A DNA stretch of 64,000 bases from Octopus sinensis (Eukaryota), in contig NC_043004.1 of NCBI RefSeq assembly GCF_006345805.1, forward strand, positions 81,344,001 to 81,408,000, read 5' to 3'. Shown here piece by piece: positions 27,266 through 63,768 of the stretch (position 1 is its first letter; each line of letters starts with the position of its first letter). Position numbers and translations under genes: made by a program. The notes beneath the pieces were generated by a model, which saw only the letters and a program-made list of their open reading frames with translations, made no database searches and had not been told where the DNA came from.

Positions 27266-27332
27266 CCTACTGACGAAGACTAGCCTCAGTAAATATGTTT
27301 TTACTGGAATTAGTCAGAAACCATGGTCTAGG
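27266..27332 (+). ncRNA. Minimal type-I hammerhead ribozyme motif
   Basis: ccta-CTGACGA-a-gacta...tagtc-a-GAAAC-catg-GTC-tagg. Helix I ccta/tagg, helix II gacta/tagtc, palindromic helix III ACCATGGT, GUC cleavage triplet. Confidence 0.8.
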
Positions 27333-27736
27333 AACTAAATTAGATGGTAAACGTTTTTAATTTTCAATCTTTTCGGGAATTTATCCATAATTAGTGGTTT
27401 GAGTTTTCTACTGCTCTTTCTAGCACAAGGCTTTCCTATTTGGAAGCCTCTTTATGTATTCTAATGCACACGATATTTTTATGTGAATAATATATAGTCT
27501 ATTGACTATTTTTTTCTGCTAGGCAACTGGTAATAATAATTTCTATAATTCTTATTACCCTAATATTATTTATTATGTTTAAATATTTTTTGATAGATTT
27601 GTTCGGAATTTTACCGGCATCCTCTCTGTCGCCGGAAATAAACTGCATCGACGCGGTTGTTTTGAAAACTTAGGATATACAGGCAACTAGTTTACATACG
27701 AATCTAGTTGTGAGTATATTTGAAATCTAAAGGCTC

Positions 27737-27803
27737 CCTACTGACGCAAACTAGCCTCAGTAGATATTTTTTTACTGGAACGAGTTAGAAACCATGGTCT
27801 AGG
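27737..27803 (+). ncRNA. Second, degenerate copy of the hammerhead motif (core CTGACGC)
   Basis: ccta-CTGACGC...GAAAC-catg-GTC-tagg, 471 bp after the first copy in a tandem duplication. Confidence 0.6.
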
Positions 27804-28639
27804 AACTAAAATTGGTGGTAAACGTTTTTAATTTTCAATCCTTTCGAGAATTTATCCATAATTAGTGGTTTGAGTTTTCTACTGCTCTTTCTAGCACAAG
27901 GCTTTCCTATTTGGAAACCTCTTAATGTGTTCTAATGTACACGATATTTTTATGTGAATAATATATAGTCTATTGACTATTTTTTGTGTGCTAGGCCACT
28001 GATAATAATAATTTCTATAATTCTTATTACCCTAATATTATTCATATATATATATATATATATATATATATATATATTATATATATATAACCACAAAATT
28101 AGGGATAGAATCCGACAGGAACGAAATGAAAAAACAAAAACTTTTACCATCTTGTTTGAATCCCGCGAGTGGATTCCTAATGTGTTTAAATGTACACTGT
28201 ATTTTATGAGTAATACATAGTCTTTGGGGTAAATTTTTACACGCTAGGCCACTGGAAGTGAAAATTTCTATTAAGTTCCATTTCCCTTCGATATGATTAA
28301 GTATTGTGTGTGTGTAATATATATATATATATATATATATATACATATATATATATATAATATATATATATACAATATATTATATATATACATATACATA
28401 TATATATATACATATATATATACATATATATATATATACATATATATATGCATATATTATACAATATACATATATATATAGATATATGTATATGTATATG
28501 TATATATATATGTATTATATCATATACATATACATACATTATATATATACATACATATATATATATATATATATATAGAATATATATATATATATATATA
28601 TATATATATATATATATATATATATAATATATGTTGTTA

Positions 28640-29762
28640 AAACATGTTGTAGTTGAAGGGGTAAAATCAAGCCCAGCCAAAGTCAGTAGTGGCGTTCCGC
28701 AAGGCACTGTGCTGGGCCCACTTCTTTTCATCATTTACATTAATGACATTAATGACATCATCAAGCACAGCAACATAAAAATCTTTGCAGATGACTCCAA
28801 GCTACAGAAGGTCATAAACGAGGCGAGTGACCGGACATGCCTTCAGTCAGATCTACTGGCTGTTATCCAATGGGCAGAAAAAACAATATGCTGCTGAACG
28901 AGGATAAATTTGAGCTAATCCACTTTGGAAAAGAGGATGCCCTGAAACTCCCATACCACCTTCCTTCAGGTGAAACTCTCGCGGCGTCCAACAACATCAG
29001 AGACTTGGGAGTAATTGTGGACAACAACGTAAGCTGGGCCACTCATATAAACACCAAAGTTGACATGGCCCACAGAATGTGTTCCTGGATTCTCAGAACT
29101 TTCCAGTCGAGAGATATCCACACCATTATCCTTCTCTTCTCCACTTTCCCGACCCCACCTTGAATACTGTTGTCCACTGTGGTCTCCCCACACAATACAA
29201 GGTATCATAAAAGTTGAAGCACACTCAAAGGGCAATCACAAAAAAGATAGATGGCATGACAGGCCTCGACTATTGGGGTCGGCTAGAAAAGCTAAAACTC
29301 TATTCTCTCCAACGTCGTCGTGAGCGCTACATCATCTGCATGATGTGGAAAATATTCCATCAGCATTGCCCAAATGATGTTGGCATCACCTTTAGGTACA
29401 TCCAAGACTTGGCGCCCGTGCCATCCGCCCAAAACAAAAAATCGCACTCTCATCTCATAACAACAATACGGCACAATTATTTCACCTCAATTGGCCCCGC
29501 TCTCTTTAACATTACACCAAAACACATTAAAACAGAAACTGACCCTATAGGGTTCAAGAAGTCTTTGGACAGATTCCTTCAAGAAATCCCGGATAAACCC
29601 CCTACACCCGGATATGTCTCTGTAAACAATAACTCTCTACTTGAGTGGGCCATAGTGCCCAAATTCTGACTTGAAAGACTTCACCAGGTGGTGCTATTAA
29701 GTTAGACATGGCCTGGGCCAATAATGGCCGAAACCTATCAAAGTATCAAAGTATCAAAGTAT
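28640..29762 (+). mobile_element. 5'-truncated CR1-group (CR1/L2/Daphne-like) LINE, frameshifted RT C-terminus
   Basis: [20 protein letters not shown]...IFADDSKL, DLGVIVD, RPHLEYCCPLWSPH, LYSLQRRRER across three frames; (TATCAAAG)n tail; inserted in (TA)n. Confidence 0.9.
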
Positions 29763-29774
29763 ATATATATATAT

Positions 29775-60721: not shown

Positions 60722-60890
60722 CAAAGCCGTGGAAAGTCGGAGGATAGCAAGCAGTGTCCTAGCAGAGGTGAAAGTTGTGTCTTTACTGTTACGAGATTCT
60801 TTGCGCATTTCAACATAAGCTCCAGTAATATAATCAGAAAGATTTTCAGGAATAACTGGTTGTTTTGATTGGCATAAGGAAATATAACGC
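60722..60890 (-). CDS. MCM7: MCM7 exon (169 nt): [56 protein letters not shown]
   Basis: ttattttcag acceptor and gttagt donor. [16 protein letters not shown] is the MCM7 AAA+ lid/sensor-2 region. Confidence 0.97.
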
Positions 60891-62584
60891 CTGAAAATAA
60901 AAGAGGGAAATTAAAACTCAGTATTTTCTTATAAAAATGAAAGTAGGAGGAAAAGAAATATGGTTTAAAAATATGTAAACTAATACTGCAGGTAAGTGGA
61001 GGTTTTCTAGATTATGGAGGATATTCATCATCATCATTTAACGTCCGTTTTTCATGCTAGCATGGTTTGGCTGGGGTCTGTGAAGCCAGGAGGCTGCACC
61101 AGGCTCCAGTTCGATCTGGCAGTGTTTTTACAGCTGGATGCCCTTCCTAATGCCAACCACTCAGTGAGTGTAGTGCATGCTTTTTACGTGCCACTGGCAC
61201 AGGTGCCAGGGTGGGCTGGCAACGACCACGATCAGTTGGTGGTTTTTACGTGCCACCGGCACGGAAGCCAGCCAAGGTGGTGCTGGCATCAGCCACATAC
61301 GGATGGTGCTTCTTAAAGGTAATATTTGAGGATAACTACGAGGGTTTTAGGTTAGTCCCACAGTGTGGCACCTTGGTTAAATGTCTTTTTCTTTAACATT
61401 TGGCCAATTAGAGAGCCTTGCAAGTGGATCTGGTTGACAGAAACTTAATGTATACACATATATATAAGTAAATATACTTTATACATGTTGAGTGTGTGTG
61501 TTATAATTGAGAACAAACAGTAAGAGTTTCAAATGTCGAAGCACAGAGCTACAATGCATTCTCGTCAGCTATTAACATCACTGAAAAACCGTTGAACAAA
61601 AGGGAAAAAAATACATAAGAAATACAAGCAACTATATTCTCACATTTGAAACTGAGTTCTATAATGGCAGCCTTTTACTTTTTGTCCTAAATTATGACAT
61701 ATATAAATAATTCTCTATTTCTCTAATATCTTTTTTTGTTACTTTATATTATTTTATGTGTGGCACATAAAACGCGCCAGTTGTGCATGGTTGATGTCAG
61801 TGCAGCCTGACTGGCTCCCATGCCGGTGGCATGTAAAAACCACCATTCGAGCGTGATCAATGCCAGTGCCACCTGACTGGCCCCCATGCTGGTGGCACGT
61901 AAAAAGCCCTCGCTACACACTCAGAGTGGTTGGCATTAGGAAGGGCATCCAGCTGTAGAAATCTTGCCAGATCAGATTGGAGCCTGGTACAGTCAAACCA
62001 TCCAACCCATGCCAGCATGGATAGCAGACGTTAAACAATGATGATGGTGATGATATATATATACACAATACACACCACACATACATCATAAATATATGAT
62101 CATAGAAGTCATCCAACATGGCAGATTTCCTGTAGTCAATCCTCTTGCTTCCAAGCAAGGTAATAATATATTCCCATGGTCAGATACGTTTCTGCAGAAT
62201 ATCTGAAATGAATAACACTGCTTGTGACAGATAATTTTAGAATTATCCCTTGATATCAAGACAAACACACACATTTATGACAGGATTCTTTCAGTTTCCA
62301 TCTGACAAATCCAATAAGGTTTCAGGTCAGCCCTAGGCCTATAGCAGTAGCCATGCTGTGGGATTGAACTCAAAACTACATGGTTGGGAAGCAAACTTCT
62401 TAACCACACAACCACGACAGTGCCTAATACTAATGTGAACACAAAATACTTTTAATTCAGAAAATTTAAAGCAAATGGAGTTTGCTGTTTTAAAACTATT
62501 CCCCTCGGCATAAAATCTGAAGCAAAATAAAATAAAATGAAGTCGAAACTAAACATAGATGTTTAAGAGAGAAAAATTATCAAC

Positions 62585-62668
62585 CTCATTAATTTCATGT
62601 CGAGTGGAGTGAACTGTGCTGGAGGTTGGGTGTTATGTTGGTGAACGTATGTTATGTGTTGGGCCAAC
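62585..62668 (-). CDS. MCM7: MCM7 internal exon (84 nt, phase 2-2): (R)[27 protein letters not shown](R)
   Basis: Minus strand ttttgcag|G TTG GCC CAA...ATG AG|gttg. The peptide matches the MCM7 segment [25 protein letters not shown], and the frame continues into the next exon. Confidence 0.95.
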
Positions 62669-62879
62669 CTGCAAAATAACAAAAGACAATATAATCAAAA
62701 TAATTATCGTACTCAATCAACATTCAGAAATATAGAAGAAACTAACGAGACAAAAACTAGAATCTTACAAAAGACACGTTGTTAAGACAAACCTCAAACC
62801 TATTCCGAGATGCACAAAAGTTATCTGCCCCTAGATAATGATTACCTCCCCTTTGTTACTGTATGTTGAAATCTATAAA

Positions 62880-63470
62880 GCCTTTGAAATAACGAAGAAT
62901 TTAATACAATAACTGTCATTAGCAAGCTGGTGTTTCGAAAATGAATTAAAATGAAAATTTGATGGAAGGTTTTAATTTAGATCACTTTATTCTTTTTATT
63001 ACCATATTTTCGTTGAAATACACAGCTTCTGTTTTAATTAATTTTAAAAATAATTTAAAACAACTGTCATTATTAATCTGGGGTTTGGAATGCAAAGAGA
63101 GAAAGTTTTGATAGAAGTTTCAATTCCGATCACTTAAAAACAGGAGGCTAGCATACAGAACTAGAGGTGGTCTCAAGCGGTTTGGTATCAAAAGATTTAA
63201 ATACAGCAAGGAATTTGATGAGGGAGATTTAGCTGTTGACCACATAGAAGCTCTCTCACTGACTAACACACTCCATGGGTGAAAAACACTTTTGTTATAT
63301 TTCTGTTGAAATACACTATTTCCATTTCAATTTATTTTGAAAATAACGAACAATTTATTAAAATAACTTCTCTTTATTAAGCTGGTGTTCAGCAATTAAA
63401 TTTACAAATAGGATTTAATTTAGATCCCAGTAACCTTTTTGTTACATTTCTATTAAAATACACTGCATTA
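62880..63470. repeat. Degenerate tandem repeat / MITE-like remnant in an MCM7 intron
   Basis: Recurrent tttgaaaataacgaa..aataact..attaagctggtgtt..ttttaatttagatcac..gttgaaatacac blocks, about 3 copies. Confidence 0.55.
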
Positions 63471-63768
63471 CTTACATTTGATGGATATTTGTCCTCATCT
63501 TGTTTGTTAACACATTTCAGCTGATATACTCTCCAGCCTTCATCAGGTGTCTTTGGGAAATTTCGAACCTAGGTTCTCATTCCTAAGGTATTTTTCGATA
63601 TTATTGTTATTATTATTATTATTATTTCAGGTCACTGTTTGGAATCGAACTCGGAATCTTGGGGTTATTAGCCCACGCTCTTAACCACTATGCCATAAGC
63701 CTGTAAGCACAGTGGTTAAGAACGTGGGCTACTAACCCCAAGATTCTGAGTTCGATTCCAGGCAGTGA
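63470..63768 (-). mobile_element. tRNA-headed SINE-like element with a hammerhead-containing tail and an inverted duplicate of its head
   Basis: Minus strand: A box TGGCATAGTGG, B box GAGTTCGATTCC, (TAA)n linker, then the same sequence as the 60358-60616 arm (degenerate hammerhead at 63509-63551). The head (63632-63694) is repeated inverted at 63707-63768. Confidence 0.7.

Follow-up and report, generated by a model that had tools for sequence, protein, structure and literature searches.

A stretch of 64,000 nucleotides (nt) of the Octopus sinensis genome (NCBI RefSeq assembly GCF_006345805.1, contig NC_043004.1, positions 81,344,001 to 81,408,000 of the forward strand, read 5' to 3'), hereafter called the window, carries ten small motifs of the type-I hammerhead ribozyme, located in short dispersed repeats, beside a remnant of a Penelope-like element and in an intron of MCM7. 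A hammerhead-like motif was confirmed at each of the ten positions where a sequence-only reading had placed one. That reading had counted at least five unrelated flanking sequences; the heterogeneity stands, and the number of repeat families is seven, not five. We consider it quite probable that the ten motifs are minimal type-I hammerhead copies of seven dispersed families, likely spread by Penelope-like enzymes of the Neptune type, with masters likely selected for a cleavage-competent fold. The motifs and the elements that carry them are given below in window coordinates.

27259..28045 (+): family A element, a direct partial tandem of 1.65 non-coding units of 471 nt, ending at (TA)n
27266..27332 (+): hammerhead A1, intact with C3-G8, with a long helix II, ACCATGGT as helix III and cleavage predicted after 27328
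27737..27803 (+): hammerhead A2, damaged copy with A9 changed to C
29760..30003 (-): inverted copy of the 3' end of family B, truncated at its 5' side and holding only helix III and the 3' strand of helix I
30027..30090 (+): hammerhead B, intact with C3-G8, helix III ACGATCGT, in an element at about 30003-30243 between (TA)n
33157..33194 (-): A6U-family hammerhead with the core CUGUNGA and ACGT as a helix III that lacks a loop, in an element at about 33066-33262 between (TA)n runs
34687..35094 (+): 5'-truncated Penelope-like GIY-YIG endonuclease remnant (PF01541, 25.6 bits, above the cut-off), Neptune/Nematis by its relatives
35163..35208 (+): hammerhead F, damaged (G5 changed to C) copy of a U3-A8 family, helix III ACCGGT
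35682..35716 (-): U4C-subfamily hammerhead with the core CCGACGA, ACGT as helix III and a damaged helix I, in an element at about 35588-36084
59733..59778 (-): hammerhead E, A15.1 changed to G (GAAA, with helix III ACATGCATGT, in its relatives), in an element at 59511-59814
60408..60453 (-): intact hammerhead D within a head-to-head inverted pair, of which it occupies the left arm (60347-60487), in the sense direction of the MCM7 pre-mRNA
60521..60566 (+): intact hammerhead D in the same pair's right arm (60488-60627)
63509..63551 (-): hammerhead D, helix III deleted, in a near full-length family D element at about 63463-63701
63641..63701 (-): head of this family D element, A-box-like and B-box-like motifs 32 nt apart, then (AAT)n

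A strict descriptor (CUGANGA, GAAA, UH, with helix I and helix II of at least 3 each) found four sites in the window (27270+, 30030+, 60448- and 60526+), against a mean of 0.1 and a maximum of 1 in 30 dinucleotide shuffles, whilst seven sites were found with one core mismatch allowed, against 0.93 in the shuffles. An intact canonical core is present in four of the ten motifs, namely A1 (27266), B (30027) and the D pair (60408 and 60521). The remaining six cores are non-canonical, with A9 changed to C at 27737, A6 to U at 33157, a damaged core of the U3-A8 type at 35168, U4 changed to C at 35682, GAAG at 59733, and a damaged helix III at 63509, where three letters have been lost. The departures at 35682 (U4C) and 33157 (A6U) are family-level states and not decay. 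A palindrome or near-palindrome forms helix III in nine of the ten motifs, so that the claim of palindromic helices throughout holds for all except 63509. At the level of families, the core is canonical in A, B, D and E, whereas C-U4C, C-A6U, F and two further families named after their pair at positions 3 and 8, G3-C8 and A3-U8, are variants. An extra nucleotide after A9 is carried by families A, C, D, E and G3-C8, and is absent from B, F and A3-U8; family F carries an extra A in its GAAA box. A scan of the window with Rfam gave no hammerhead family among the matches listed (150 of 164), a null that is uninformative here because its hammerhead models do not fit these variants.

The two tandem copies of family A in the window are identical at 288 of 309 letters, their longest open frame encodes 56 amino acids, and the same permuted tandem recurs at another locus (L066). 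Hammerhead F sits in the 3' repeat of the element that bears the GIY-YIG remnant, family E has a unit of 352-353 nt that occurs in tandem at other loci, and an inverted copy of the family D head lies at about 63706-63768. Beside these elements, the stretch at 28089-28315, between (TA)n runs, resembles by eye the 3' part of family A and is possibly a diverged relative lacking a hammerhead, and a near-perfect 77-nt inverted repeat at 30361-30437, next to (TA)n, adjoins the family B element.

All the families are repeated in the genome, as shown by exact-pattern counts over its whole length (2.72 Gb), for which reversed-pattern controls gave 0-2 matches. Family D has 1,487 exact copies, family A 86 and family F 29, while family C has 7,405 copies with C4 (U4C) and 4,230 with U4; the 3' half of family B gave 2,856 matches (control 2), and the A6U family 4,582 matches for one N7 state. 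For family E, 1,692 first-look candidates were obtained, of which 40 were scored. The density was estimated from 120 evenly spaced stretches of 10 kb (1,199,700 bases, weighted to the largest contigs; the 1.2-Mb sample), in which a descriptor leaving positions 3 and 8 free found 46 motifs with a Watson-Crick pair at these positions (1.5 in shuffles) and six U4C motifs. This corresponds to 43 descriptor-passing motifs per Mb (bootstrap 28-63), or by extrapolation to about 120,000 in the genome (75,000-170,000), two local arrays contributing six and five of the sampled motifs. The palindrome is exact in 27 of the 52 and near-exact in the remainder. When intact and damaged copies of 43 query clusters are counted together, the density reaches 95 per Mb (bootstrap 71-122), a lower bound since the A6U family is omitted. 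The window, with a count of nine, is ordinary among the sampled stretches (P = 0.20), and the rate of one motif per 6 kb that had been given for it is reached only if damaged copies are included, intact canonical motifs numbering four. The excess over shuffled sequence that the sequence-only reading had proposed as its check was thus obtained both in the window and in the sample, and the genome-wide counts support its view of many families of minimal hammerheads of the Penelope or retrozyme type at high density. That the genome is exceptionally dense in them is plausible, published counts resting on other descriptors.

The pair between positions 3 and 8, which is part of the active hammerhead conformation (PMC3884650), occurs across the families as C-G, U-A, G-C and A-U. 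The G3-C8 family has 3,925 copies, with G-C in 96 of 100 of the matches listed, and the A3-U8 family 695 copies, with A-U in 92 of 100 of the matches listed, both scored by eye; a mixed family of 101, scored likewise, has 86 A-U, eight G-C and six unpaired among the 100 matches listed. All 39 motifs with the helix III ACCGGT in the loci examined divide into 22 U-A, 16 A-U and one G-C, about 11 of them having been chosen by a U3-A8 pattern. In a tree of the endonuclease, the U-A and A-U elements fall into separate groups (Shimodaira-Hasegawa-like approximate likelihood ratio test, SH-aLRT, 95), with eight long-branch rows disregarded as antisense matches. Among 23 clusters of at least two loci, 22 have a Watson-Crick majority at 3-8, one is a 1:1 tie and none has a mismatch majority, the search patterns having fixed positions 3 and 8 in three of the 23. 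In the 1.2-Mb sample, non-pairing states are found 15 times (4.5 in shuffles), and 11 of the 15 are U-G or C-A, one transition away from a pair. In a Penelope hammerhead, single mutants at this pair kill activity, whereas the double C3G/G8C mutant partly rescues it (PMC11167929). The motifs are likely selected to cut, because their families hold compensatory swaps of this catalytic pair for each of the three alternatives.

Other core positions behave unequally. Several sub-lineages have inherited U4C, which is seen again in other clusters, and A6U is a fixed state of subfamilies with differing N7: U6 is present in 22 of 25 copies with N7 variable (15 of the 25 from the 1.2-Mb sample), and in 96 of 100 of the matches listed from the genome search. 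In the sample, no family-level change was detected at G5, at A9, or to U4A or U4G, the matches numbering 3, 0 and 0 against 1, 0 and 0-1 in shuffles. CpG decay was considered as the origin of the family C copies with U4 and was rejected, since copies with the same label (U4 or C4) group together on a 52-row tree (4 changes against 16.9 when shuffled), in which one window row was masked one column off and the bootstrap had not settled. The claim of natural covariation in the helices is borne out in family A, where five of the 16 pairs of helices I and II are changed on both sides and 94.6% of 352 cells pair, compared with 20-44% in slid controls; double-changed cells number 27 against 10.2 shuffled, a control inflated by relatedness, in a set of 22 sequences picked by a pattern that fixes the core. 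Possible A6C cores were also seen at L133:6500-7500 (-), in three tandem copies about 488 nt apart, and at L173:7487 (+), in one copy of a family that shows U4C as well.

The association with Penelope-like elements is direct for one window family. The GIY-YIG remnant at 34687-35094 has 14,943 first-look candidates in the genome, and in its longer relatives GIY-YIG is accompanied by an RVT_1 reverse transcriptase (RT) and a C-x4-C-x2-C linker. In nine of 12 loci family F follows a sense GIY-YIG frame at a distance of 100-400 nt, as does the A3-U8 family in seven of 15; the full arrangement of RT, zinc-finger linker and C-terminal GIY-YIG upstream of a hammerhead was found for these two families. 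The retroelement link had been proposed for the whole set of motifs; it stands on a Penelope-like frame for the family of 35168, and for the other six window families the anatomy of their insertions points to it. Two frame matches near family A were rejected, one as an antisense artefact and the other as an unrelated neighbour, and the long shared upstream stretches of families B and C proved to be non-coding or microsatellite-like and not frames.

The insertion anatomy of Penelope-like elements, comprising 5' truncation, an inverted 5' copy, partial tandems, a one-sided tail and (TA)n, was found in part, differing from family to family. A (TA)n run lies within 600 nt downstream in 22 of 25 loci of family A, 25 of 25 of B, 48 of 50 of C, 12 of 12 of F, 14 of 15 of A3-U8 and 12 of 15 of G3-C8, the background being 31%. 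Inverted upstream copies were detected in 11 of 15 loci of G3-C8, eight of 25 of B, four of 18 of E, three of 25 of A and two of 10 of D. With inverted copies in 11 of 15 loci, G3-C8 transcripts would be long hairpins. This family (L290-L304, e.g. L300:1498-1547 +) is about 150 nt long with immediate inverted copies. Locus L124:2800-5300 holds an array of 535-nt units, of which four are direct and two inverted; every unit has an intact hammerhead with helix III ACAATTGT, and the array lies 0.7 kb before a fragment of a diverged Penelope-like RT.

Family D is a short element composed of an A/B-box-like head, (AAT)n, the hammerhead and a tail of about 30 nt. Both boxes, scored by the general tRNA-type box consensus, occur within 260 nt in 10 of 38 copies, with 20 copies in the 1.2 Mb, and six of nine heads in the sample lead into a D body. 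No Rfam transfer RNA (tRNA) match was obtained for the head at E ≤ 10, and ARAGORN made no call at a lowered threshold. The family thus appears like a short interspersed element (SINE), and we do not file it as a tRNA-derived one. It may be an octopus tRNA-derived SINE that already has a name; a literature search for one gave no match. In eight of nine inverted pairs the tail is present on one arm only (by eye); an optional one-sided tail and inverted copies are described for Penelope-like elements (PMC8557442, PMC11167929).

A mechanism can be outlined on this basis. A tandem or partial-tandem transcript would place two motifs together, and the palindromic helix III would pair between the two motifs of one transcript; a cut after N17, probably with the help of the element's protein, would trim the RNA, which would then be reverse-transcribed into AT-rich targets. 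The short families A, B, C, D and E would borrow the enzymes of Penelope-like elements, and most genomic copies would be solitary, truncated or mutated relics that no longer cut. Hammerheads of the Penelope type are weak and reported to need dimers (PMC4209133) or the element's protein (PMC11167929). In line with the first, the active dimer predicted for family A is also its minimum-energy dimer, the only such case (-40.2 kcal/mol against -30.6 for two monomers); the predicted active dimer is favoured over two monomers for A, B, F and A3-U8, and is not favoured for E, helix II having been left unfolded for E and A3-U8.

Several observations count against a spread by Penelope-like enzymes of motifs selected to cut. 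The predicted dimer is not favoured for D (-22.3 against -25.2 kcal/mol), C (-5.7 against -13.0) and G3-C8 (-27.2 against -29.4), and dimers of C and D, with their four-letter palindromes, and of G3-C8 would need the help of a protein. No pile-up of read starts or ends was detected at the cut sites on either of the two stretches onto which three RNA-sequencing (RNA-seq) runs of one study were mapped; these are fragmented complementary DNA libraries, possibly of a related species, ill-suited to the detection of cut ends; such ends are likewise reported absent for the element PAc (PMC11167929). The Penelope protein inserted in vitro without the need of cleavage in the same report. The A6U and U4C families, whose cores are expected to lower activity, rank among the most abundant; for U4C and A6C, an activity that is lower has been reported or is expected (PMC3088659). 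The 3-8 swaps amount to about four independent double changes, each of which arose once in a master lineage, and the thousands of copies are not independent observations. A search of the 1.5 kb upstream of A, B, C, D, E and G3-C8 (133 loci) gave no coding frame apart from the two rejected matches of family A, and these families are likely non-autonomous dependants. Finally, (TA)n is not enriched for D (one of 10) or E (seven of 18), and inverted copies occur in none of the 50 family C loci.

Hammerhead E and one of the intact D motifs are in sense orientation within a spliced intron of MCM7, the features of which are as follows.

58784-59164 and 60721-60900 (-): MCM7 exons
59044..60720 (-): spliced MCM7 intron of 1,677 nt, holding hammerhead E and the D pair, by spliced reads

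The intron joint (59043/60721, CT..AC) is supported by 17, 16 and 12 reads in three runs, and the exon matches MCM7 with E 4e-24. The two arms of the D pair are predicted to fold together as a single long hairpin (-225.7 kcal/mol). With the D motif in this hairpin and E damaged, harm to the MCM7 pre-mRNA is unlikely. Reads of family D are abundant on both strands, and 95% of those mapped continue into unrelated sequence, as expected of passive transcription.

One alternative is that the fold has been retained because it serves the element's enzyme as a signal for protein binding or for priming; cleavage would then be weak or optional, and the cores would drift where binding allows. It would account for the strong amplification of the A6U (4,582) and U4C (7,405) families and for the inheritance of U4C through several sub-lineages, and it agrees with the insertion of cleavage mutants in vitro (PMC11167929) and with the cut-site ends not seen in RNA-seq; it fits less well with a 3-8 pair, part of the active conformation, that stayed Watson-Crick through about four swaps, and with the lack in the sample of family-level change at G5, at A9 or to U4A or U4G, so we regard it as possible but unlikely. 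Similarly doubtful, and compatible with our preferred explanation rather than exclusive of it, is the possibility that families A and E and the 535-nt array at L124 are non-LTR (long terminal repeat) retrozymes, in which tandem transcripts would yield monomers, circular RNA and reinsertion. Non-coding tandem units with one hammerhead each occur at a minority of loci (471 nt in A, 352-353 nt in E, 535 nt at L124), with permuted partial tandems in A and E; the layout matches that described in PMC7229834, and the long palindromes give stable predicted dimers (helix III duplexes of -11.2 and -13.3 kcal/mol). Against this, the copies are mostly solitary, with a direct copy within 1.5 kb in only one of 25 loci of A and two of 18 of E, and family E has a low read depth with no back-joint among the joints listed, 71 further joints lying outside that listing.

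That the ribozymes are passengers, either neutral relics or parasites of the elements with cores set by founder effects, appears improbable. Parasitism has been suggested (PMC8557442), six of the ten window copies are non-canonical and the intact-looking ones are under half of all (43 against 95 per Mb); yet compensatory changes in helices I and II and at 3-8, and the lack of any family fixed for a mismatch, are unexpected under neutral drift of masters. We give very little weight to a domestication of the intronic copies for the splicing or stability of MCM7: though E and one intact D are sense within the spliced intron, E is damaged, the D motif is hidden in the predicted D-arm hairpin, the two sense motifs differ in their palindromes and could not dimerise, and the local density of copies is average. 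Chance matches or an assembly artefact, which short motifs in an AT-rich genome might suggest, can be taken as already refuted by the four sites against 0.1 in the window, the 46 against 1.5 in 1.2 Mb, and the thousands of exact copies against controls of 0-2. We therefore return to minimal hammerheads dispersed by Penelope-like enzymes as the best explanation. A bolder extension, which we put forward tentatively and which may well be wrong, is that the genome is a natural library of about 100,000 hammerheads with four 3-8 pairs and fixed U4C or A6U, their selected fold relaxed by the protein, and including one RNA polymerase III SINE that would run on Penelope machinery and not on that of a long interspersed element (LINE).

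Other features of the window lie apart from these families. A broken LINE-like RT fragment at 28630-29760 (+) ends 3' in a small GGCC hairpin, GAAAC and a (TATCAAAG)n tail, and no hammerhead first box was found in it or in its L136 counterpart. A tRNA-like sequence whose anticodon arm holds an insertion is present at 25363-25456 (-) (Rfam tRNA, 42.4 bits), a 7.6-kb array of 263 copies of a 29-nt AT-rich unit at 1408-9026, and a Mariner/Mos1-type transposase helix-turn-helix fragment (PF17906) at 53814-54140 (+).

Many palindromic minimal hammerheads in an invertebrate genome are in themselves an ordinary finding. They bear on why Penelope-like elements keep hammerheads, since cleavage was dispensable in the one in vitro insertion assay (PMC11167929) and parasitism has been suggested (PMC8557442). 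The repeated compensatory swaps at 3-8 are evolutionary evidence that catalysis, or at least the active conformation, matters, and the family variants are ready-made natural constructs with single-change controls. Tens of thousands of motifs per genome escape descriptors in which CUGANGA is fixed, and a SINE-like element dependent on Penelope enzymes, if true, would widen the known partners of SINEs.

Most of the architecture has been described before. The hammerheads of Cervera and de la Pena (2014, PMC4209133) share the type-I form with short helix I, the extra nucleotide between 9 and 10.1, a palindromic helix III with or without a loop, the U3-A8 variant and molluscan examples, as well as copies that number thousands in each genome, in heterogeneous, mostly solitary families with opposite-strand pairs; the extra A, the palindromic helix III, the heterogeneous families, the opposite-strand pairs and U3-A8 are therefore already published there. 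The representative alignment of that paper has CUGA and UUGA cores only, whereas the octopus adds fixed G3-C8, A3-U8, U4C and A6U and the extra A in the GAAA box. The 43 per Mb of the octopus come from a broader descriptor and are not like for like with its counts per genome of 2,000+1,300 in S. mansoni and 9,000 in X. tropicalis; other reported counts are more than 6,000 in Acropora and 126,247 in the axolotl, the latter similar to the octopus estimate (PMC7229834 and bioRxiv 10.64898/2026.07.22.740005).

The Neptune and Nematis EN+ Penelope-like elements (Craig et al. 2021, PMC8557442) share the RT, a C-x2-5-C-x-x-C linker, a C-terminal GIY-YIG in which two cysteines separate GIY from YIG, the 3' hammerhead, 5' truncation, the inverted 5' copy and (TA)n targets. 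In the octopus, Neptune and Nematis are not distinguished, no intact full-length frame was retrieved, and non-canonical 3-8 pairs occur within the clade. The non-LTR retrozymes (PMC7229834; Li et al., bioRxiv 10.64898/2026.07.22.740005) have in common with the octopus non-coding units of 350-540 nt, one type-I hammerhead, tandem arrangement and a proposed Penelope origin, while the octopus copies are mostly solitary or 1.5-mers. Family D resembles the SINE-like hammerhead repeats of Schistosoma (PMC6765202), in which a promoter-bearing short repeat is followed by a type-I hammerhead, and differs in its minimal Penelope-type motif, inverted 5' copies, one-sided tail and dispersed distribution.

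Apart from an Rfam count of 235 in the giant squid, the literature searched gave no paper on Penelope hammerheads of cephalopods, and no report of natural A3-U8 or family-wide A6U; older surveys or figures may already report G3-C8 or others. Seehafer et al. 2011 may list a few natural G3-C8 motifs. Perreault et al. (2011, PMC3088659) share U3-A8, U4C (in a viroid), A6C, an insertion in the GAAA box (U13a) and a very short helix II; these variants are rare single examples there, and G3-C8, A3-U8 and A6U are unnamed in its text, figures aside. The natural core-variant set of the octopus thus appears to be unreported. PAc, a Poseidon element from Anolis (Frangieh et al. 2024, PMC11167929), shares the hammerhead in a pseudo-LTR, AT-rich targets and an optional tail of 30-40 nt, and the G3-C8 pair that was engineered as a rescue in PAc is the natural state of about 3,900 octopus copies.

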